Shown: piece after piece, positions 1,865 to 24,298 of the stretch
Layout: every line of letters begins with the position of its first letter
How positions within the stretch are numbered: the first letter of the stretch is position 1
Sequence record: OR062945.1
DNA length: 64,000 bases
DNA from: Escherichia phage 308Ecol101PP
Reading direction: 5' to 3' (one strand)
Notes under the pieces: generated by a model
Told to the model about the DNA's origin: nothing
The model's database searches: none
What the model saw: only the letters and a program-made list of their open reading frames with translations
Translations under genes and position numbers: made by a program

Positions 1865-3549
1865 AATCATTTAAATTAAATCGTGTTCGTTATCAAAACA
1901 TCATGTCGGTAGGTGGGAATCCTATTGACATCCAATTAGATAAAGTCCAAAAGACATTAATCACTGGTAAAAATGGCGGTGGTAAATCTACGATGTTAGA
2001 AGCCATTACTTTCGGACTTTTCGGTAAACCATTTCGTGATGTTAAGAAAGGGCAAATCATTAATAGCACGAACAAGAAAGAGCTCTTAGTTGAGCTTTGG
2101 ATGGAATTCGATGGTAAAAAATACTTCATTAAACGTGGCCAAAAGCCCAATATTTTCGAAATCTCCGTTGACGGTGTTCGTCTCGATGAATCTGCCAGCA
2201 GTCGTGACTTCCAAGAAGAATTTGAACGTAGCATCGGAATGTCATACGCGTCTTTTAAACAAATCGTTGTGCTTGGGACGGCAGGGTATACCCCTTTCAT
2301 GGCTCTTAGCACCCCTGCTCGTAGAAAACTTGTCGAAGACCTTTTAGAAGTCGGCACACTCGCCGAAATGGATAAAATCAATAAGTCTCAAGTTCGAGAA
2401 CTTAATTCTCAGGGACAAGTTCTTGATGCCAAGAAAGATGGTATTATCCAACAAATTAAGATTTATAATGAGAATATCGAACGTCAAAAGAAATTATCTG
2501 GTGATAATGTAGCGCGTCTACAGAATATGTATGACGACCTAGCCAAAGAAGCTCGTTCATTAAAAGCAGAAATCGAAGAAGCTAATGAGCGACTACTTAA
2601 TATCGTTCTTGATGAAGACCCTACTGAGGCATTCAACAAGATCGGACAAGAAGCATTCTTGATTAAATCTAAAATCGACTCATATAACAAAGTTATTAAG
2701 ATGTATCATGACGGTGGTACATGTCCTACTTGTGCATCGCAGTTGCACCAGGGTGATCCTATTGTCTCTAAGATTACCGATAAGCTTCACGAATGTAATC
2801 ACTCATTCGAGCAACTTACATGTCACAGAGATAATCTGAGTGTCCTAGTGGACGAATATAGAGCTAATGTTAAGACTAAACAGGACCTTGCATCTGATAT
2901 TCGTACCAAGAAACAAGCAATGATTGCCACTATTGATAAAGCTAAGAAAGTTAAAGCTGCAATAGAGCAAGCCTCAGCAGAATTTATCGACCATGCCGAT
3001 GAGATAGCTTTGCTTCAAAAAGAACTTGATAAAATCATTAAAACAAAATCAGATATCGTTCTTGAAAAATACCATCGTGGTATTATCACAGATATGTTAA
3101 AAGATTCTGGTATTAAAGGTGCTATCATTAAAAAATATGTGCCTCTGTTCAACAAGCAGATTAACCATTATCTTAAAATCATGGAAGCTGATTACGTGTT
3201 TTCTATTGATGAAGAATTCAATGAATCTATAAAATCACGTGGCCGTGAAGAGTTCAGTTATGCTTCATTTAGTCAAGGCGAAAAAGCGCGTATCGATATC
3301 GCATTGTTGTTTACATGGCGAGATATTGCTGAAAAGGTCTCTGGTGTTAGAATCAATACATTAATTATGGACGAAGTCATGGATTCCGCGACTGATTCTG
3401 AAGGTATTAAAGCTATTTCAACAATTCTTAACTCTCTAACCGATGCAAACGTGTTTATAATTAGTCACAGAGACCATGACCCACAAGCTTATGGACAACA
3501 TCTTCAAATGAGCAAAGTTGGACGATTTACTGTAATGACTGTTTCATAA
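1861..3549 (+). CDS. 46: gp46 recombination endonuclease subunit (Rad50/SbcC-like ATPase)
   Basis: 562 aa; Walker A GKNGGGKST near N-terminus, central coiled coil with CPTC zinc hook, C-terminal signature/Walker B (LIMDEV). Confidence 0.95.
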   Translation: MKSFKLNRVRYQNIMSVGGNPIDIQLDKVQKTLITGKNGGGKSTMLEAITFGLFGKPFRDVKKGQIINSTNKKELLVELWMEFDGKKYFIKRGQKPNIFEISVDGVRLDESASSRDFQEEFERSIGMSYASFKQIVVLGTAGYTPFMALSTPARRKLVEDLLEVGTLAEMDKINKSQVRELNSQGQVLDAKKDGIIQQIKIYNENIERQKKLSGDNVARLQNMYDDLAKEARSLKAEIEEANERLLNIVLDEDPTEAFNKIGQEAFLIKSKIDSYNKVIKMYHDGGTCPTCASQLHQGDPIVSKITDKLHECNHSFEQLTCHRDNLSVLVDEYRANVKTKQDLASDIRTKKQAMIATIDKAKKVKAAIEQASAEFIDHADEIALLQKELDKIIKTKSDIVLEKYHRGIITDMLKDSGIKGAIIKKYVPLFNKQINHYLKIMEADYVFSIDEEFNESIKSRGREEFSYASFSQGEKARIDIALLFTWRDIAEKVSGVRINTLIMDEVMDSATDSEGIKAISTILNSLTDANVFIISHRDHDPQAYGQHLQMSKVGRFTVMTVS

Positions 3550-17927: not shown

Positions 17928-19370
17928 GTGGTAGAAATTATTTTGTCTCATCTAGTATATGACCAGGCTTATTTTTCTAAGGTCTGGCCTTATATGGATT
18001 CTGAGTATTTTGAGCGTGGACCGGCAAAAAATGTCTTTAAAATTATAAAGAGCCACGTTAACGAATATAATGCAATGCCATCTATCAATGCGTTAAAGGT
18101 GGCTTTAGATAACAGTTCTTTAACTGAAGCCGAATATAAAGGAACTTCAGACCTAATTGAAAAATTGGCTGATACTCCTGAAGACCATGAATGGTTGGTT
18201 AAAGAAACTGAGAAATATGTCCAGCAAAAAGCGATGTATAATGCTACGTCCAAAATCATTGAGATTCAGTCTAATGCTGAATTACCTCCAGAACAACGTA
18301 ACAAGAAAATGCCTGATGTAGGAGCTATTCCTGATATTATGCGTCAAGCACTTTCAATTTCGTTTGATAGTTATGTTGGGCATGACTGGATGGAAGACTA
18401 TGAAGCACGCTGGCTTTCTTATCTAAACAAAGCACGTAAGGTCCCGTTCAAATTAAACATTCTGAATAAAATCACTAAAGGTGGTGCTGAAACCGGTACA
18501 CTGAATGTTTTAATGGCTGGTGTTAACGTTGGTAAATCTTTAGGCCTTTGTTCACTTGCTGCAGATTATCTTCAAACAGGTCATAACGTTCTTTATATTT
18601 CTATGGAAATGGCTGAAGAAGTTTGCGCTAAGCGTATAGATGCAAACATGCTTGACGTATCACTTGATGATATTGATGATGGTAACGTATCTTATGCTGA
18701 ATATAAAGCCAAGATGGAAAAATGGCGTTCAAAATCCACATTAGGACGTTTAGTAGTTAAACAGTATCCTACTGGCGGAGCTAATGCTAATACATTCCGT
18801 GCATTGCTTAATGAATTGAAACTCAAGAAGAACTTTGTGCCATCTGTAATCATGGTTGATTACTTAGGTATTTGTGGGTCTTGTCGTATCAGAGTTTACA
18901 CTGAAAATAGTTACACATTAGTTAAAGCTATCGCAGAAGAACTTCGTGCATTAGCAGTAGAATCTGAAACAGTTCTATGGACTGCAGCTCAAGTAGGACG
19001 TGCAGCATGGGATGCTTCGGATATGAACATGAGCGATATTGCAGAATCAGCAGGTTTACCAGCAACGGCAGATTTCATGTTGGCCGTAATTGAAACCGAA
19101 GAACTTGCACAAGCCGAACAACAACTTATCAAACAAATCAAATCACGATACGGCGATAAGAATAAGTGGAATAAATTCCTGATGGGTGTACGTAAAGGCA
19201 ACCAGAAATGGATTGAGATTGAGCAAGAAGGCATGAACACATCTAACACAGTAAATGAAAACGCAGGTGCTCAGATGCGTCAGGCAGAGGTGAATCGTAC
19301 GGAACGCGTAGGTAAAGCCAAAGCAACACGTGCTGACCTAGATAGCTTAGCCAATGAGTTAAAATTTTAA
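17928..19370 (+). CDS. 41: gp41 replicative DNA helicase (DnaB-like)
   Basis: 480 aa; GTG start 5 nt after AAGGAG; Walker A GVNVGKS; N-terminus MVEIILSHL... matches T4 gp41 as recalled. Confidence 0.95.
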   Translation: MVEIILSHLVYDQAYFSKVWPYMDSEYFERGPAKNVFKIIKSHVNEYNAMPSINALKVALDNSSLTEAEYKGTSDLIEKLADTPEDHEWLVKETEKYVQQKAMYNATSKIIEIQSNAELPPEQRNKKMPDVGAIPDIMRQALSISFDSYVGHDWMEDYEARWLSYLNKARKVPFKLNILNKITKGGAETGTLNVLMAGVNVGKSLGLCSLAADYLQTGHNVLYISMEMAEEVCAKRIDANMLDVSLDDIDDGNVSYAEYKAKMEKWRSKSTLGRLVVKQYPTGGANANTFRALLNELKLKKNFVPSVIMVDYLGICGSCRIRVYTENSYTLVKAIAEELRALAVESETVLWTAAQVGRAAWDASDMNMSDIAESAGLPATADFMLAVIETEELAQAEQQLIKQIKSRYGDKNKWNKFLMGVRKGNQKWIEIEQEGMNTSNTVNENAGAQMRQAEVNRTERVGKAKATRADLDSLANELKF

Positions 19371-19376
19371 TAAAAA

Positions 19377-19397
19377 GGAGACTTCGGTCTCCTTTCG
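19377..19397 (+). terminator. UUCG-tetraloop hairpin terminator after gene 41
   Basis: GGAGAC-TTCG-GTCTCC followed by TTTCGGGGTTT. Confidence 0.55.
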
Positions 19398-19399
19398 GG

Positions 19400-19429
19400 G
19401 TTTACATCTTCCTCTAGGCATGATACGAT
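19400..19429 (+). promoter_or_regulatory. putative early promoter
   Basis: GTTTAC at 19400-19405, weak -10 TACGAT about 18 nt downstream. Confidence 0.35.
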
Positions 19430-19458
19430 GTACTTACACCAACCAAGAGGAAAACATT

Positions 19459-19833
19459 ATGAATATGTCTCAAGCAATTTTTACTGCAATCACCGAAAAC
19501 ACAACTGTTGAAGTAGTTTCTCCACTGGCAACCTACGTTATTCTTGCTCCTAAAACTATTGTATCTCGTATGGAAAACATGGGCAAACGTATCGTACAAA
19601 TTGTTGGAGCCGGAAATCAAAAACTTGATTATCTGCGAACCATCAAAGCTTATGAACATTTCCAACTCGAAAAAGGTTCTCCTATCCAGGTAGAACTCGT
19701 AAATGGTGATATCGTTCGAGCAATGTTCCATCATTTCTATGCATTGAATGACCCATCTAAAGCAGTTCGTTTAATTGCATACGACGCAAACCAAACCGAA
19801 ATCAACGCAGATGTATCTAAATTACGTTTTTAA
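19459..19833 (+). CDS. hypothetical protein (124 aa)
   Basis: ATG 19459 after AGAGGAAAA; ORF track begins at 19420. Confidence 0.5.
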   Translation: MNMSQAIFTAITENTTVEVVSPLATYVILAPKTIVSRMENMGKRIVQIVGAGNQKLDYLRTIKAYEHFQLEKGSPIQVELVNGDIVRAMFHHFYALNDPSKAVRLIAYDANQTEINADVSKLRF

Positions 19834-19843
19834 GTTTACTTCT

Positions 19844-19872
19844 CCAGTAGTTGTGTTATTATAGACCTATCA
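19844..19872 (+). promoter_or_regulatory. early promoter (GTTTAC -35, 17-nt spacer, TATTAT -10, AGACCTATC downstream)
   Basis: Consensus elements present; embedded in a 13-bp inverted repeat. Confidence 0.6.
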
Positions 19873-19888
19873 ACTACTGGAGAACAAA

Positions 19889-20206
19889 ATGAAAACCATC
19901 GATTGTAAAGCAGAATTTAAGATTTTTTATCACGGTTCAAGTAGTTCAGCTAACATCGAAAACATGCTTTGTCCTCCTGAGGAAACAGGAGTTCTGTCTG
20001 AAACCGGACGTAAGAAAAACTTGGATCGTGTATTCTTTACTGAAGATATCGGTTTAGCAAAGATTTATGCAGGACGAGCAGCACGCTCTTATGGAGGTGA
20101 ACCACGTCTCTATCGAGTAATTTCTCCGGTAGACGTAGTTCAAATGAATGATACTAAAGGTGCTACAGTTTATCACGCTGAATGGGCATTTTGTGAGGAA
20201 ATATGA
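19889..20206 (+). CDS. hypothetical protein (105 aa) with H-G-S ... Y ... E residues
   Basis: ORF with SD GGAGAACAAA; FYHGSS, IYAGRA, YHAEW blocks. Confidence 0.5.
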   Translation: MKTIDCKAEFKIFYHGSSSSANIENMLCPPEETGVLSETGRKKNLDRVFFTEDIGLAKIYAGRAARSYGGEPRLYRVISPVDVVQMNDTKGATVYHAEWAFCEEI

Positions 20207-20394
20207 GCAAATTAACTAAAGTTACTTTTATAGGTTGGTTTAAAAGCGGTGAGATGTTCACTAAAGATATCATGTTATCAGGTGATCGCGAAGAAATCGA
20301 GTGGGTTACGGTACAACTTGCTGAAGTGAACAACGCATTAGTTAAAGCATTTGTTAATGACGAGAAAGTTTTTGAAGCTGATTTCAGAGGATAA
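20203..20394 (+). CDS. hypothetical protein (63 aa)
   Basis: ATGA-coupled start. Confidence 0.45.
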   Translation: MSKLTKVTFIGWFKSGEMFTKDIMLSGDREEIEWVTVQLAEVNNALVKAFVNDEKVFEADFRG

Positions 20395-20395
20395 T

Positions 20396-20608
20396 ATGTA
20401 TTCAACTGTGTTTAAACCATCAACATACGAATTTGCATCAACTACACAATGGAAAGCTCTTATTCTGGAAGGATGGGAACTAATGATGGACTGTGAAGCA
20501 TCTGAAAAGTTTCCGCACGGCAAAGTGGACTTCGTTAAATTTGCTGTACGTCCGACTAAACGACAGATTCGTCAAGAAAAACGCAAATTTCGCAAAAGTT
20601 TAAAATAA
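20396..20608 (+). CDS. hypothetical protein (70 aa)
   Basis: ATG 20396 after CAGAGGATAA; ORF track starts at 20351. Confidence 0.45.
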   Translation: MYSTVFKPSTYEFASTTQWKALILEGWELMMDCEASEKFPHGKVDFVKFAVRPTKRQIRQEKRKFRKSLK

Positions 20609-20610
20609 CT

Positions 20611-20640
20611 GTTTACAAGCACCACATACTGTGTTACTAT
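20611..20640 (+). promoter_or_regulatory. early promoter
   Basis: GTTTAC, 18-nt spacer, TACTAT. Confidence 0.5.
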
Positions 20641-20668
20641 CTTTTTATCAACTACAGAGGAAATTAAA

Positions 20669-21037
20669 ATGAAAAAATTAATCGCTTTAGCAATGGTATT
20701 TGGATTAACCGGATGTGGTGCCCATGGCTTTATCCCTAATAACGTTGGCCAATTGATTTACAATCCGAATGTTAAACAATATGAACAACCTAAAGTTGAA
20801 GTGGAAGACCCGGTTACTGTAGGTAATCGAATGATTCAAGCTGATGCCCATGCTCAACGTTATCGTGACTCTGATACTGTAGCTGTGTCAAAGGAACAGC
20901 GCGTTAAAGAACATTGCTTACAGGCTACTGAAATCGCATTCATTCGCTATGTTGAAACAACCGGTAAAGAGCCTACCCAGAAACAAATCGCGAATAACTA
21001 CGTCCAGTGTATTGAACGTTTAAACAAATTTAATTAA
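20669..21037 (+). CDS. putative lipoprotein (122 aa)
   Basis: Signal peptide MKKLIALAMVFGLTGC with lipobox L-T-G-C; SD GAGGAAA. Confidence 0.6.
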   Translation: MKKLIALAMVFGLTGCGAHGFIPNNVGQLIYNPNVKQYEQPKVEVEDPVTVGNRMIQADAHAQRYRDSDTVAVSKEQRVKEHCLQATEIAFIRYVETTGKEPTQKQIANNYVQCIERLNKFN

Positions 21038-21040
21038 TTG

Positions 21041-21073
21041 GTTTACGCCAAAGTTAAAACAAGATGCTATAAA
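21041..21073 (+). promoter_or_regulatory. putative early promoter
   Basis: GTTTAC with TATAAA about 21 nt downstream (spacing atypical). Confidence 0.3.
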
Positions 21074-21098
21074 CATAACAAATCAAGAGGAAATTAAC

Positions 21099-21347
21099 AT
21101 GGAATTATTCGTGGCTAGTTCAGTAGCAGTTTTAATCGCAGGTATTGGTTCAATCATCATTTACATGTTGCCTTGGGTAATCGCACTTATTCGTGGCACA
21201 AAAAGCACAACAGCAATCTTCTTTGTATCTTTACTCTTTAACTGGACGATGATTGGTTGGATTGGAACTTTAATTTGGTCTATTGTTGCCGAAAAGAAAT
21301 CTGCTCAGCAGCCTCAACAAGTAATTATTATTCGCGAAAAAGAATAA
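21099..21347 (+). CDS. small integral membrane protein (82 aa, 2-3 predicted TM helices)
   Basis: Hydrophobic stretches VAVLIAGIGSIIIYMLPWVIALI and FFVSLLFNWTMIGWIGTLIWSIVA; SD AGAGGAAA. Confidence 0.55.
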   Translation: MELFVASSVAVLIAGIGSIIIYMLPWVIALIRGTKSTTAIFFVSLLFNWTMIGWIGTLIWSIVAEKKSAQQPQQVIIIREKE

Positions 21348-21352
21348 ACTTG

Positions 21353-21382
21353 TTTACATTATAGATGGACTATAGTATAGTA
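21353..21382 (+). promoter_or_regulatory. early promoter
   Basis: GTTTAC, 18-nt spacer, TATAGT, AGTCCTATC downstream. Confidence 0.55.
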
Positions 21383-21410
21383 GTCCTATCAAATCAACTA
21401 AGGAGTTAAA

Positions 21411-21704
21411 ATGAAAAAGTTATCATTGGCAGCAATCTTACTCGCAGTATCATGTGCACCAGCTCCAGTTACGGCAGGTTATGATAAAGACCTCTGTGAG
21501 TGGTCAATGACTGCAAATCAAGAAGATGTTGAACAACAAATCTTCTCTGATATCATGAACATCACTAAACGAGACCGTCCTAATATGGTTAATAAAGTTG
21601 TTGAACAACTTAAGTCCGGTGGTATCATGCAGTACAATTATGTTTTGTATTGTGACCCTAATTTCGATAACAAAGATATCGTAACCGAAATCACAGGTGA
21701 ATAA
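21411..21704 (+). CDS. putative lipoprotein (97 aa)
   Basis: Signal peptide MKKLSLAAILLAVSC with lipobox; SD AAGGAG. Confidence 0.6.
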   Translation: MKKLSLAAILLAVSCAPAPVTAGYDKDLCEWSMTANQEDVEQQIFSDIMNITKRDRPNMVNKVVEQLKSGGIMQYNYVLYCDPNFDNKDIVTEITGE

Positions 21705-21705
21705 T

Positions 21706-22356
21706 ATGATTTATTACATGCACAAAAACGCGCCATTTAAATATGGTAAATTTCCTAATGCACAATGTTATAATATAACGCCGAATGAAAATAATAACGG
21801 TTATCATATTGGTGTAATTTTTGTAATTGTTAAAGATAACGAAATCGTTGCCTGGGCTGATTTTAAAGGTACAACGTATGATGTTAATCCGGTGCCTTTC
21901 ACATATTACAATATAATGGATTTGGCATATGATTATAATTGGTTTAATCATGACGCGTTGGCTCATATTGAAGGTGTAGGATTTGACATCTCTTATTCTA
22001 GCTATTCATTATGTCCTATGAGCCGAGCTCACGGTAAAGATGCATCATATCTTTCATTTCGGAAACGTGTAAACTTCAAACGTAGTACAGAGTATGTCGG
22101 TGGACTCTTTGTTAAAGATAATAAAATAACCCGTATTAGTTATCCTTTAAGTGTAGGTCAAAAAGATGTTGATGTTGATTTAGACTTAACTGAAAATAAC
22201 ATTAATCATATTGCTTCTGTATATTTTGATATCGATGAAAAAATTGTAGTGTGTGGATACGAATTACCACCTGAAGAAAAGGCTGAAGCAATTGAAGTCG
22301 AATTAGAAATTTCTGTTGATGACCAAATATTTAATGCATTTATGAATCGAGGTTAA
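21706..22356 (+). CDS. hypothetical protein (216 aa), AT-rich
   Basis: ATG 21706 after CAGGTGA; ORF track begins at GTG 21697. Confidence 0.5.
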   Translation: MIYYMHKNAPFKYGKFPNAQCYNITPNENNNGYHIGVIFVIVKDNEIVAWADFKGTTYDVNPVPFTYYNIMDLAYDYNWFNHDALAHIEGVGFDISYSSYSLCPMSRAHGKDASYLSFRKRVNFKRSTEYVGGLFVKDNKITRISYPLSVGQKDVDVDLDLTENNINHIASVYFDIDEKIVVCGYELPPEEKAEAIEVELEISVDDQIFNAFMNRG

Positions 22357-22357
22357 A

Positions 22358-22555
22358 ATGACTACTGCAATTTGCACTGGTTCTAAAATTAGTGTTTTTA
22401 CAAGTTTTGAAGATTATGAAGTTGTTTCAAAACACCAATACCATATTAGCGTAAAAGCTAATGATGGTGTAATTTGGAATATTCCACAGTATGAAGGCAC
22501 TACATATGAAGTCACAGATATAAATGGTGACAAAGCAATCTTTGTAATTGATTAA
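22358..22555 (+). CDS. hypothetical protein (65 aa)
   Basis: ATG after CGAGGTTAAA. Confidence 0.45.
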   Translation: MTTAICTGSKISVFTSFEDYEVVSKHQYHISVKANDGVIWNIPQYEGTTYEVTDINGDKAIFVID

Positions 22556-22574
22556 ATATACTCAGGAGGTACCT

Positions 22575-23042
22575 ATGGGTATTATTAACACTGCAATAGA
22601 TTCTGTTTACGCATATAAGTTTATTCGACTAATGCAAAAACCTTTTACCGAATGGAAAGCATACGAAGCCAAAATCATCGATGAACGTGGAAGTGTTCTT
22701 AAACGTCCTTCTACTCCCGAAGAGAAAGCGGCGTATACACCTTTTCATGCTTCAGTTCGTTCAATGAAGCGAATGATGAGCACTGTTCCAGGTCTTAATG
22801 GAATGGCCTCAATGATGTCTGCCTGGAGTGCTGTAGCTTCACGCTATAACATTACGGAAGAACAGCAGAAAGAAATATTTAAAGAACTCCCTTTATTTGA
22901 GGATATGGTTGCTGGTGATTCAGGTGGCAGCCCTCAAGCTATTGCATCAGGAACAACTACAGGTGCAGTCGTAAATAAAGGTCCAGAACAAATTCCTTCC
23001 AAGAAAAGAAAGCGAATTAAAGTAAATATTAATAAGTTGTGA
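22575..23042 (+). CDS. hypothetical protein (155 aa) with basic C-terminal tail
   Basis: ATG 22575 after strong SD CAGGAGGT; ORF track begins at 22548. Confidence 0.5.
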   Translation: MGIINTAIDSVYAYKFIRLMQKPFTEWKAYEAKIIDERGSVLKRPSTPEEKAAYTPFHASVRSMKRMMSTVPGLNGMASMMSAWSAVASRYNITEEQQKEIFKELPLFEDMVAGDSGGSPQAIASGTTTGAVVNKGPEQIPSKKRKRIKVNINKL

Positions 23043-23081
23043 TATGATGGCCTTATTAATTTAAGGCCTCTGGAGAATACT

Positions 23082-24104
23082 ATGGCTGAATGGATAGATA
23101 ATGAATTTGCTTATCGTGCGTTTTCTCACCTACCTCGTTTTAGACAAATCAATAATTCAAGCACATTTAAATTAACATTTCGTTGTCCAGTTTGTGGCGA
23201 CTCCCAGACAGATGCAATGAAAGCTCGTGGATGGTATTATGGCGGTACTCCTGGTAATGTACATTGCTATAATTGTCAATACCACAATACAATTTCCGGA
23301 TACTTAAAAGAATATGACGAAGAGCTTTATCGCGAATATCTAATGGAAGTTCGTAAAGAAAAAGCTAGAATGGAACCAAAGATTGAAAAGGTTCCTGAAG
23401 CTAAGCCGGAGCCAGAGAAAAAGACTATAAATTCTTTACCGTCTTGTTCTCGTCTGGACAAGCTGCCTGAAGAGCATCCTATTGTGAAATATGTTAAGTC
23501 TCGATGCATTCCTAAAGAATCATGGAACAGATTATGGTTCACATTAGAATGGCCTAAATTGGTCAACAAGATTCAACCTGGTACGTATAAGAAAGAGATT
23601 CCCGAACCACGTTTAGTGATTCCTATTTTTAATAAAGATGGGAAGGCCGAGTCATTCCAAGGGCGTGCACTTCGTAAAGATGCTCCTCAGAAATATATCA
23701 CTATTAAAGCGTTTGAGTCTGCAACAAAAATTTATGGTGTTGAACGTGTTAAGGAAGGAGACGTCTGGGTAATGGAAGGCCCTATTGATAGTTTATTCAT
23801 ACCCAATGCAATCGCTATTACAGGCGGCTCAATAGATTTAGATGTGGTACCATTTAAAGAACGTCGGGTATGGGTAATGGATAATGAACCTAGGCATCCG
23901 GATACTATAGCTCGCATGAAGCGATTAGTTGATGCAGGCGAACGTGTCATGTTCTGGGACCGAGCTCCATGGAGATCAAAGGATGTGAATGATATGGTAA
24001 TGAAAGAAAATGCAACACCACAAGAAATTTTAGAATATATGAAACAGAATATTTCAAGTGGGTTGCATGCTAAAATGAGATTATCTCGTTATTCGAAGAT
24101 TTAA
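23082..24104 (+). CDS. 61: gp61 DNA primase
   Basis: 340 aa; N-terminal zinc ribbon CPVCGD...CYNC, TOPRIM-type central region; T4 gene order and size. Confidence 0.85.
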   Translation: MAEWIDNEFAYRAFSHLPRFRQINNSSTFKLTFRCPVCGDSQTDAMKARGWYYGGTPGNVHCYNCQYHNTISGYLKEYDEELYREYLMEVRKEKARMEPKIEKVPEAKPEPEKKTINSLPSCSRLDKLPEEHPIVKYVKSRCIPKESWNRLWFTLEWPKLVNKIQPGTYKKEIPEPRLVIPIFNKDGKAESFQGRALRKDAPQKYITIKAFESATKIYGVERVKEGDVWVMEGPIDSLFIPNAIAITGGSIDLDVVPFKERRVWVMDNEPRHPDTIARMKRLVDAGERVMFWDRAPWRSKDVNDMVMKENATPQEILEYMKQNISSGLHAKMRLSRYSKI

Positions 24105-24298
24105 ACAAGCCCTATAATAGCAAAGGCCAAATCAACTACAGTATCCAATGGAACAGAAGGAACTATAATACCATTAGCAACTAACAATGGTGCAATCCCG
24201 AAGTTCCATGAAATAATGCCACCTACAACTATTGCGGCGATAGCAGTTTTCTTTTTATTGCCTTTAATAGCGTTTATTAACGATGGAAGTTTAAACAT
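24101..24298 (-). CDS. small membrane protein (65 aa) encoded antisense to the early gene direction
   Basis: Minus-strand ATG preceded by AAGGAG at 6-nt spacing; highly hydrophobic (AIAAIVVGGIISWNFGIAPLLVANGIIVP). Confidence 0.5.
   Translation of the reverse strand: MFKLPSLINAIKGNKKKTAIAAIVVGGIISWNFGIAPLLVANGIIVPSVPLDTVVDLAFAIIGLV

Follow-up and report, generated by a model that had tools for sequence, protein, structure and literature searches.

The stretch of DNA that we analyzed (the window) comprises 64,000 nucleotides of Escherichia phage 308Ecol101PP (OR062945.1) and is that of an RB69-like Mosigvirus, with 98% DNA identity to RB69 and to more than 150 Mosigvirus genomes. A 3.7-kb block between the end of the replicative helicase gene 41 and the start of the primase gene 61 contains exactly ten plus-strand genes, as an earlier sequence-only reading had described, and all ten match a PHROG or Pfam family (Table 1). 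With gene names and the T4 layout taken from the RB69 and T4 annotations, their order is ORF041c, ORF040c, dmd, tifA (61.4), imm.1, imm, sp, adfA (61.2), ORF033c and a long 61.1. The block is the RB69-type form of a variable anti-defence island already known from T4-like phages. Five of its ten genes, dmd, tifA, adfA, imm and sp, have published roles in anti-defence or exclusion.

Table 1. Genes, promoter-like motifs and hairpins from gene 41 to gene 61, with positions in the window.
Feature	Position	Strand	Evidence
Gene 41, replicative helicase, left flank of island	17928..19370	+	85% aa identity to T4 gp41; RB69 annotation
Terminator-like hairpin AGGAGAC-TTCG-GTCTCCT, directly 3' of gene 41	19376..19393	+	dG -12.8 kcal/mol, z -3.2
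Early-promoter-like motif GTTTACA-N17-TACGAT, upstream of ORF041c	19400..19429	+	motif match
ORF041c (124 aa), lineage-restricted ORFan	19459..19833	+	phrog_10668
Early-promoter-like motif GTTTACT-N16-TATTAT, upstream of ORF040c-dmd-tifA	19834..19862	+	motif match
14-bp perfect inverted repeat	19840..19884	+	dG -21.1 kcal/mol, z -5.35
ORF040c (105 aa), minimal Arr/Tpt1-like ADP-ribosyltransferase-fold protein	19889..20206	+	fold search, profile links
dmd (63 aa), inhibitor of RnlA/LsoA toxins	20203..20394	+	Pfam PF17587, E 4e-21
tifA / 61.4 (70 aa), inhibitor of ToxN	20396..20608	+	Pfam DUF7279, E 3.5e-20
Early-promoter-like motif GTTTACA-N17-TACTAT, upstream of imm.1	20611..20640	+	motif match
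imm.1 (122 aa), predicted lipoprotein	20669..21037	+	Pfam DUF5481
Weak early-promoter-like motif GTTTACG-N17-TGCTAT, upstream of imm	21041..21070	+	motif match
imm (82 aa), superinfection immunity membrane protein	21099..21347	+	Pfam PF14373, E 1.5e-15; 65% identity to T4 Imm
Early-promoter-like motif GTTTACA-N17-TATAGT, upstream of sp	21352..21381	+	motif match
sp (97 aa), periplasmic spackle protein	21411..21704	+	Pfam PF25676, E 1e-42
adfA / 61.2 (216 aa), anti-DarT factor A	21706..22356	+	Pfam PF23813, E 4.5e-121
ORF033c (65 aa)	22358..22555	+	phrog_3249; VR5 has homologue
Long 61.1 (155 aa), conserved directly upstream of primase gene	22575..23042	+	phrog_2086
Hairpin GGCCTTA-N6-TAAGGCC, between long 61.1 and gene 61	23049..23068	+	dG -12 kcal/mol, z -2.85
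Gene 61, primase, right flank of island	23082..24104	+	74% identity to T4 gp61; RB69 annotation

Relatives of ORF041c formed only two clusters among 5.8 billion proteins, and its AF2 model was unusable (pLDDT 35); its start at 19459 is supported by the AGAGGAAAA Shine-Dalgarno sequence and by where the promoter lies. Dmd blocks the RNase toxins RnlA and LsoA by binding (PMC9391042, PMC3014915), and TifA, which is 100% identical to the functionally tested TifA of RB69, blocks ToxN (PMC9391042). The N-terminus of Imm.1, MKKLIALAMVFGLTGC, contains a lipobox, and in the T4 annotation its gene lies between genes 42 and 43. The gene singled out earlier as AT-rich is adfA, whose GC content of 0.321 is indeed lower than that of 99.6% of all 650-nt windows (mean 0.377, sd 0.023); together with ORF033c, whose GC content of 0.308 is the lowest in the block, it forms the most AT-rich stretch of the whole window. 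AdfA neutralizes DarT, and the allele present here encodes His at RB69 position 164, the meaning of which was taken from the literature (PMC11257639). Long 61.1 has 112 homologous clusters, and Acinetobacter phage Lazarus has a 58% identical counterpart at the same place; T4 gp61.1 matches only its C-terminal 40-50 residues.

Several early promoters had been read in the block, and this was borne out when both strands of the window were scanned for GTTTAC-N15-19-TANNNT, which occurred 20 times versus 4.9 ± 2.4 times in shuffled sequences, a fourfold enrichment, with 17 of the 20 occurrences on the plus strand. A generic sigma-70 scan of the window revealed no enrichment (22 found versus 19 ± 4.3). 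Promoters within the island were assigned by motif match only; four clear GTTTAC-type motifs fall in its intergenic gaps, and the assignment of a weaker fifth, upstream of imm, is uncertain because its -10 box is poor. The hairpin directly 3' of gene 41, which has a similar counterpart in Dhakavirus VR5, forms with the following promoter a PeSL-like stem-loop and early-promoter cassette (PMC4122927). Upstream of ORF040c, the -10 box lies inside the inverted repeat, the 3' arm of which includes the ORF040c Shine-Dalgarno sequence (GGAG, 19879-19882); a metagenomic locus (L011) has the same promoter and inverted-repeat architecture with a different inner stem. No T run was found 3' of the hairpin that precedes gene 61.

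The sequence-only reading had described genes 41 and 61 as close neighbours in T4, which was mistaken, as dmd, 61.4, sp, 61.2 and 61.1 intervene (~1.65 kb). Its proposal of a hyperplastic anti-defence island fared better. The number of genes between 41 and 61 is five in T4, eight in VR5, ten in the window phage and 15 in Lazarus, and the gene sets differ among T4, VR5, Lazarus and L011, supporting a hyperplastic region whose content varies between T4-like genera. This plasticity does not extend to the boundary gene, long 61.1, or to ORF040c, both of which are conserved. The concept itself was published as the 'anti-TA island' (Srikant et al. 2022; PMC9391042).

ORF040c had been taken for the first gene of the block, whereas it is the second, and the residues said to recall an ADP-ribosyltransferase (ART) core are present as H15-G16-S17, Y60 and E103. 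Which glutamate was meant had been left unspecified; E103 is invariant only within the T4-like subfamily and E98, in the sequence AEW, is variable. Arr was the best PDB match of the ORF040c structure model (pLDDT 86) in Foldseek (E 9.7e-3), and a viral protein labelled 'Rifampin ADP-ribosyl transferase' matched at E 8e-9. ORF040c itself gave no Pfam match at E ≤ 1 and no direct match to PDB sequences; searching PDB sequences with its family profile returned Arr as the only match, with H15 aligned to H19 and F49 to Y49. Pfam Arr-ms was matched at E ≤ 0.001 by 24 of 45 multidomain relatives, many of which are virion-associated polyvalent proteins with portal, tape-measure, ART-PolyVal, NUDIX, 2H or CHAP domains, and relatives checked individually scored 26.9-31.5 bits, above the gathering score of 25. 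The ART fold is thus supported both by the fold search and by links between profiles, and no unrelated fold emerged. No experiments on ORF040c were found in the searchable literature.

Across very distant relatives, HG[ST], E38, R41, F49, Y60 and G69-G70 are invariant. The family has Phe at the first catalytic-site Tyr position of Arr and diphtheria toxin, D88 is variable (N88 in RB69), and the family as a whole has no invariant acidic residue corresponding to Arr D84 or diphtheria toxin E148, so ORF040c could be a binder and not an enzyme. Such a protein, having lost catalysis, might act stoichiometrically, whether by binding NAD+ or ADP-ribose or by inhibiting a host defence protein or serving as its decoy, in keeping with its length of only 105 aa without a substrate-recognition extension and with Dmd, TifA and AdfA, characterized island products that all work by binding. 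We consider this unlikely, as the invariant residues are those expected of a preserved NAD pocket and the ORF040c-like domain of polyvalent proteins is placed among other enzymes. The acidic residue is, moreover, also missing in some active ART-fold enzymes, such as Tpt1 and the H-Y-I/L PARPs.

A second alternative is that ORF040c and dmd constitute a phage-borne type II toxin-antitoxin pair, with the ART as toxin and Dmd as antitoxin. This has been predicted for enterobacterial phages as 'p0068-family ART + Dmd' (Iyer et al. 2022; PMC9503650), a pair that, by the text description in that paper, appears to be ORF040c-dmd; neither the island (Srikant et al. 2022) nor, it appears, the ART prediction is therefore new, and overall the finding is a known one with one candidate enzyme, ORF040c. 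Consistent with a pair, ORF040c ends and dmd begins within one ATGA, the two genes remain neighbours in Mosigvirus, VR5 and L011, and in read-through RNA the strong hairpin would mask the ribosome-binding site of the ART, as for a product needing limitation. However, the two distributions are largely disjoint: the 609 phage records with the ART include phages of Klebsiella, Acinetobacter, Aeromonas and Vibrio, and the 798 records with Dmd come almost exclusively from phages of Escherichia, Shigella, Yersinia or Salmonella. T4 has Dmd but no ART, as do at least 565 records of the <60%-identity band, the sampled rows of which were all T4-type or RB49-type. Conversely, the ART occurs, sometimes at another genomic site, without detectable Dmd: genes downstream of it in Klebsiella, Acinetobacter and Aeromonas phages did not match the Dmd model and no dmd is annotated beside it in Proteus and Vibrio phages, although very divergent Dmd-like proteins (~60 aa) may escape tblastn and the Pfam model. 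The presence of the ART without Dmd in many genera weakens the pairing. Among stand-alone distant homologues on contigs long enough to judge, all lie in phage contigs and had no recurrent partner gene. Identities of the ART (71-89%) exceed those of gp41 and gp61 in the same comparisons (53-67%), and the ART is also much better conserved than Dmd (89% versus 68% in VR5, 83% versus 49% in L011), which also counts against pairing because co-evolving partners would not be expected to be so unequal. With RnlA as a proven independent target of Dmd (PMC9391042, PMC3014915), we regard the pair as quite doubtful.

That ORF040c is a true Arr enzyme ADP-ribosylating rifamycin-type antibiotics, as some GenBank records of homologues imply (the 'rifampin ADP-ribosyl transferase' label on Klebsiella phage records), is very improbable even though both the sequence profile and Foldseek place Arr nearest among solved structures and relatives match Arr-ms, since the alignment spans only Pfam positions 1-67 of 99, Arr motifs (PMC6092378) are absent or changed (Y49 to Phe, SN[YF] to T-G-V, no DPN[VL]), ORF040c stops ~17 residues past the D84-equivalent region and so lacks the C-terminal rifampin-contacting part, and host antibiotic resistance is of little benefit to a strictly lytic phage.

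Taken together, the locus is quite probably a Mosigvirus (RB69-type) hyperplastic 41-61 region with early small-gene cassettes and with ORF040c as an independent ART effector. Transcription of the island would be early and co-oriented with that of the replication genes, starting at successive GTTTAC-type promoters located in the gaps that separate small gene cassettes; the first cassette would open with the PeSL-like element. Most of the island's products are small proteins that would protect the infection: Dmd would act against RnlA/LsoA and TifA against ToxN, AdfA (His-164 allele) would neutralize DarT1, and Imm and Sp would keep out superinfecting phage. In comparison to T4, the lineage appears to have moved imm.1 and imm into the block and to have gained ORF041c, ORF040c and ORF033c, while keeping a full-length 61.1. 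ORF040c, a minimal ART-fold protein and sister group of the Arr family, apparently shares a transcript with dmd and tifA, and its translation is probably coupled to theirs. It is most likely an early NAD-using effector, and we infer that it would bind NAD+ and, early in infection, ADP-ribosylate a conserved host or nucleic-acid target. If so, it would be an independent takeover or counter-defence effector and not the toxin of a Dmd-controlled pair.

Compared with known systems, the T4 41-61 cluster (PMC9391042) has the same flanking genes and orientation and the same early expression logic, and all five T4 genes have homologues in the window (57-75% identity). The window block is about twice as long, adds ORF041c, ORF040c and ORF033c, contains the imm.1 and imm genes found in the 42-43 interval of T4, and encodes a 61.1 of 155 aa versus 54 aa. 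As in T4-type hyperplastic regions with PeSL cassettes (Arbiol 2010, PMC2839356; Comeau 2014, PMC4122927), TTTACW-N17-TAYWAT promoters separate small accessory genes and a stem-loop lies directly 5' of the first promoter; the canonical stem-loop-then-promoter order is, however, restricted to the first gap, and in the second the promoter lies inside the hairpin. Arr-ms, the rifampin ADP-ribosyltransferase (PF12120; PDB 2HW2, 9IAF), is likewise a small stand-alone ART and shares with ORF040c the HG[ST] motif, the E-x-G-R loop and a next-strand aromatic residue followed by a helix, but it is 143 aa long, has Tyr49 in place of Phe and carries DPN and SN[YF] motifs and a C-terminal rifampin-binding part absent from ORF040c, which itself falls below the Pfam threshold. 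Compared with the RNA 2'-phosphotransferase Tpt1/KptA, to which it is only 20% identical, ORF040c lacks the N-terminal RNA-binding lobe, and the catalytic Arg/His tetrad of Tpt1 was not identified in it. AcrIF11 and T4 Alt, ModA and ModB are phage-encoded ARTs directed at the host, as ORF040c may be, although T4 Alt and Mod are of the R-S-E type and ORF040c is of the His type.

The plus strand of the window carries, in order, uvsX, gene 40, the helicase gene 41, ten small genes and the primase gene 61, and the ten were assigned to families using Pfam and PHROGs (see table). The sequence-only reading had counted these ten ORFs correctly; the 105-aa ORF that it placed first in the block, ORF040c, is in fact the second, as ORF041c precedes it. 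The site between 41 and 61 and the homologues of dmd, tifA, sp and adfA place the block within the T4-type 41-61 anti-defence island. The window belongs to an RB69-like Mosigvirus; a 3.7-kb query spanning the block matched RB69, HX01 and over 150 further genomes from end to end at 98% identity. Two of its genes, adfA, already singled out as AT-rich (GC 0.321), and ORF033c (0.308), rank among the 0.4% of 650-nt windows with the least GC (mean 0.377, sd 0.023). For ORF041c, a lineage-restricted ORFan, a homology search returned two clusters only, and its AF2 model (pLDDT 35) was too poor for use. Beyond the island, in the 61-56 interval that holds dam in T4, the hydrophobic ORF RB69ORF029w runs convergently towards gene 61 and shares with it the final four bases of that gene, stop codon included. 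Two RefSeq names in HX01 look spurious: the TifA homologue of 70 aa (2526-2738 of that locus) is called 'DNA polymerase', and Imm.1 (2799-3167 of the same locus), the counterpart of T4 imm.1, 'iduronate sulfatase'.

Features of the gene 41 to gene 61 interval and its right flank in the window
Feature	Position	Strand	Family or property
Gene 41 (helicase)	17928-19370	+	
Stem-loop	19376-19393		dG -12.8 kcal/mol, z -3.2
Early promoter motif	19400-19429		GTTTACA-N17-TACGAT
ORF041c	19459-19833	+	phrog_10668
Inverted repeat, 14 bp, perfect	19840-19884		dG -21.1 kcal/mol, z -5.35
ORF040c	19889-20206	+	phrog_2110; no Pfam match
dmd	20203-20394	+	PF17587
61.4/tifA	20396-20608	+	DUF7279
imm.1	20669-21037	+	DUF5481; lipoprotein-type N-terminus
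GTTTAC motif	21041		poor -10 box
imm	21099-21347	+	PF14373
sp	21411-21704	+	PF25676
61.2/adfA	21706-22356	+	PF23813, E 4.5e-121 over 1-216 (full-length)
ORF033c	22358-22555	+	phrog_3249
61.1L (155 aa)	22575-23042	+	phrog_2086
Gene 61 (primase)	23082-24104	+	
RB69ORF029w (65 aa, hydrophobic)	24101-24298	-	

Several independent early promoters had been proposed for the block. GTTTAC stands in each of its 55-88-nt gaps, with a -10-like hexamer some 17 nt further on, and the motif GTTTAC-N15-19-TANNNT has 20 occurrences in the window (17 on the plus strand) versus 4.9 +/- 2.4 in shuffled sequence, four of the 20 lying inside the island. These four fit the proposal, and the fifth island GTTTAC has a poor -10 box; as a generic sigma-70 promoter scan showed no enrichment, all are to be read as matches to a T4-type motif and not as mapped starts. 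The stem-loop behind gene 41 is followed at once by a promoter motif, and this arrangement (19376-19429), intergenic and within a variable region, corresponds to the PeSL cassette of early promoter and stem-loop, for which the consensus TTTACW-N17-TAYWAT has been described (Comeau et al., PMC4122927). The remaining gaps have a promoter without the canonical PeSL hairpin; three of the five intergenic gaps lack a significant hairpin, and no RNA family was recognised by Rfam between 19000 and 24500. The perfect inverted repeat before ORF040c encloses the -10 box of the ORF040c promoter and pairs the Shine-Dalgarno sequence of this ORF. The hairpin would thus be predicted to mask translation on RNA reading through from ORF041c and not on RNA begun at the proximal promoter, a design resembling the T4 e, soc, 49 and I-TevI cases (PMC3014915). 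A metagenomic relative (L011, 475-514) shares this arrangement with an inner stem that is different but compensating, while Dhakavirus VR5, which does not have ORF041c, keeps only the outer 6 bp.

The sequence-only reading had taken the block for an island of anti-defence genes, and the known functions of its members bear this out: Dmd inhibits RnlA, TifA inhibits ToxN and AdfA counters DarT (PMC9391042, PMC11257639), and the T4 and RB69 annotations give Imm and Sp as superinfection-exclusion proteins. This interpretation has been published, as Srikant et al. called the region a possible anti-TA island and flagged its other genes as candidates (PMC9391042). For RB69 and T4 it is already established that the island is one site at which T4-like phages stack counter-defences (against RnlA, ToxN and DarT) together with superinfection exclusion. 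The TifA of the window is identical to that of RB69, the most potent TifA homologue assayed (PMC9391042). At AdfA codon 168, equivalent to RB69 position 164, the window encodes His and the RB69 reference Arg; as His-164 is the DarT1-neutralising allele (PMC11257639), the phage is predicted, unlike RB69, to resist DarTG1 through AdfA. Two further differences from RB69 were observed: a 1-nt deletion there splits 61.1L into ORF032c and 61.1 (L001, 6204-6670) whereas the gene is intact in the window, and codon 88 of ORF040c encodes Asp in the window and most relatives, and Asn in RB69. Together with the published adfA R164 and an adfN frameshift, the 61.1L split and N88 make it seem that the RB69 reference strain carries several accessory-gene lesions.

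An ADP-ribosyltransferase (ART)-like core had been suspected in ORF040c from its H-G-S, Y and E residues, and both profile and fold searches led to this fold and to no unrelated one. With ORF040c as the query, Pfam, NCBIfam and PDB yielded no direct sequence match (Pfam E <= 1), and the link to the rifampin ADP-ribosyltransferase Arr came only through a broader profile and fold search. A profile search of 1.84 billion representatives recovered 221 relatives, many of them domains in phage proteins as long as 3,924 aa; of 45 relatives, 24 match Pfam Arr-ms at E <= 0.001, at exactly the residues of the mini-ART domain, with 26.9-31.5 bits against a gathering cutoff of 25 in the matches checked individually. 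In the PDB, the broad profile matched Arr alone (2HW2, 9IAF; E 0.034), with H15 placed on H19 and F49 on Y49. Further fold and profile matches were to many ART toxins, PARPs, DarT and RES toxins. As Foldseek agreed with the profile matches to Arr, the ART fold of ORF040c, with its split beta-sheet core, is well supported. Of the hallmarks of His-type ARTs (the H-Y-[EDQ]/H-H-h side of the superfamily), the H-G-[ST] motif that closes the first core strand is represented by H15-G16-S17 in strand 13-18, and all 33 close and 37 distant sequences keep H15 and G16. Where such ARTs have an aromatic Tyr on the next core strand and a second Tyr in the helix behind it, strand 48-51 carries F49-F50-T51, where the position aligned to Arr Y49 is always Phe and never Tyr, and an invariant Y60 follows 11 residues past F49 in helix 54-68. 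Invariant residues also include E38, R41, G69, G70 and G91. For the catalytic Glu, Asp or Gln that opens the fifth strand in His-type ARTs, D88, within an N-D motif, is common but variable in the family, and E103 is invariant in the T4-like branch only and missing from distant relatives.

Homologues of ORF040c formed 149 clusters, all at least 60% identical, and tblastn located the gene in 609 phage records, including Escherichia, Klebsiella, Acinetobacter, Aeromonas, Enterobacter and Vibrio phages. The family is thus present in at least 600 sequenced phages of several genera, and the domain also occurs in virion-associated polyvalent proteins of unrelated phages. No homologue was found in the T4 41-61 interval, and T4-type phages were absent among the matches listed. 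In large phage proteins the mini-ART lies beside ART-PolyVal, portal, tape-measure, NUDIX, 2H/Acb1-like, CHAP, GNAT and Toprim domains; P0166, P0161, P0146 and P0139 show it fused to a lambda-type portal with a 2H/Acb1-like phosphoesterase, NUDIX, a tape-measure protein and ART-PolyVal. Such fusions in giant polyvalent proteins suggest delivery with the virion in other phages. Relative to its flanking proteins, ORF040c is 89% identical in VR5 (gp41, 67%; gp61, 62%) and 71% identical in Acinetobacter phage Lazarus (gp41, 58%; gp61, 53%), a conservation above that of essential replication proteins that is unusual for a gene of a hyperplastic region. Several GenBank records name homologues ADP-ribosyl transferase, and a literature search found RB69ORF040c mentioned by name in no paper.

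We favour the interpretation that ORF040c acts as an independent early NAD+-using effector, since the distribution, context and conservation data tell against a pairing with Dmd. The readings of ORF040c as a non-catalytic binder and as the toxin of a type II toxin-antitoxin pair were kept as rivals. For phages of Escherichia, Shigella and Salmonella, Iyer et al. (2022) predicted a type II system whose toxin is an ART of the 'p0068-family' and whose antitoxin is Dmd (PMC9503650), and the ORF040c-dmd pair fits it, the family being equated through the text description in that paper. The two genes share an ATGA overlap with no promoter motif between them, consistent with predicted co-transcription, and their adjacency is kept in Mosigvirus, VR5 and the metagenomic relative; overlap and adjacency both suit a toxin-antitoxin pair. 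Across lineages, however, their distributions are largely separate: Dmd was found in 798 records as opposed to the 609 with the ART, in largely different host genera, almost all Dmd records being Escherichia, Shigella, Yersinia or Salmonella phages, including T4-type phages without the ART. In Klebsiella, Acinetobacter, Aeromonas, Proteus and Vibrio phages no Dmd adjoins the ART and its neighbours are unrelated; in some genomes it lies elsewhere, near hoc or near a tRNA cluster, and downstream ORFs in the three genera scanned did not match the Dmd model. The ART is, moreover, more conserved than its supposed partner, and stand-alone distant relatives on long-enough contigs were all in phage contigs with no recurrent partner gene. 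These phyletic and genomic context data weaken an obligate ART-Dmd toxin-antitoxin reading. An antibiotic-resistance role as a bona fide Arr was rejected, as ORF040c itself scores below the PF12120 gathering threshold that only profile-detected relatives pass, shares the His of the Arr H19/Y49/D84 triad but has Phe for Tyr49, has T-G-V where Arr has its SN[YF] loop and M-N-D-T-K-G in place of the DPN[VL] that contains D84 (PMC6092378), and ends at residue 105, soon after the D84-equivalent region (the Arr-ms matches of its relatives end at Pfam position 66-67 of 99), so that the rifampin pocket is missing.

We also suggest tentatively, with somewhat less than even confidence, that ORF040c represents a fourth ADP-ribosyltransferase class in T4-like phages beside Alt, ModA and ModB: a 105-residue putative enzyme related to Arr and Tpt1 that would act independently of Dmd and on which purifying selection would bear more strongly than on the replicative helicase and primase. 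To judge from its fold neighbours, Tpt1 and Arr, and from its operon partners, Dmd (which opposes an RNase toxin) and TifA (which binds RNA), the target may be the end of an RNA, an immune signal of nucleotide type or a conserved protein of the host. As the mini-ART is very widespread, unusually conserved and predicted to be co-expressed with two proven anti-toxin factors, finding this target would add a host-takeover or anti-defence mechanism and would also settle whether Dmd doubles as its antitoxin. Apart from two factual slips, the original observation was real and its interpretation is supported; island and ART prediction are both already known from the literature, the phage itself being 98% identical to RB69.

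The second slip concerned T4, in which 41 and 61 had been taken for close neighbours: dmd, 61.4, sp, 61.2 and 61.1 separate them, and imm and imm.1 lie between 42 and 43. This five-ORF cluster was reportedly described by Selick et al. in 1993. Compared with T4, the window adds ORF041c and ORF040c upstream of dmd, has imm.1 and imm relocated into the block, gains ORF033c and keeps the long 61.1, of which T4 gp61.1 (54 aa) matches only the C-terminal 40-50 residues. The island proteins are 33-67% identical to those of T4 (61.1, 75% over the short shared stretch), versus 85% for gp41 and 74% for gp61. Dhakavirus VR5 has eight genes in the interval, including two tifA-like genes, Lazarus has 15 and shares only the ART and 61.1L with the window, and in the metagenomic relative the gene order differs and two tifA-like genes are adjacent. 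These DUF7279 pairs (VR5 locus L007, 4671-4856 and 5728-5859; L011, 1638-1949 and 1946-2194) mirror in nature the tifA amplifications that were obtained by laboratory selection on toxIN hosts. With content varying this widely, the block is hyperplastic as Comeau et al. (PMC4122927) use the term, as had been proposed, except at its right edge, which is not plastic: 61.1L still adjoins the primase gene on its upstream side in an Acinetobacter phage from a different subfamily (58% identity; Lazarus, L005, 6082-6558), and this conserved position suggests a conserved primase-linked role.
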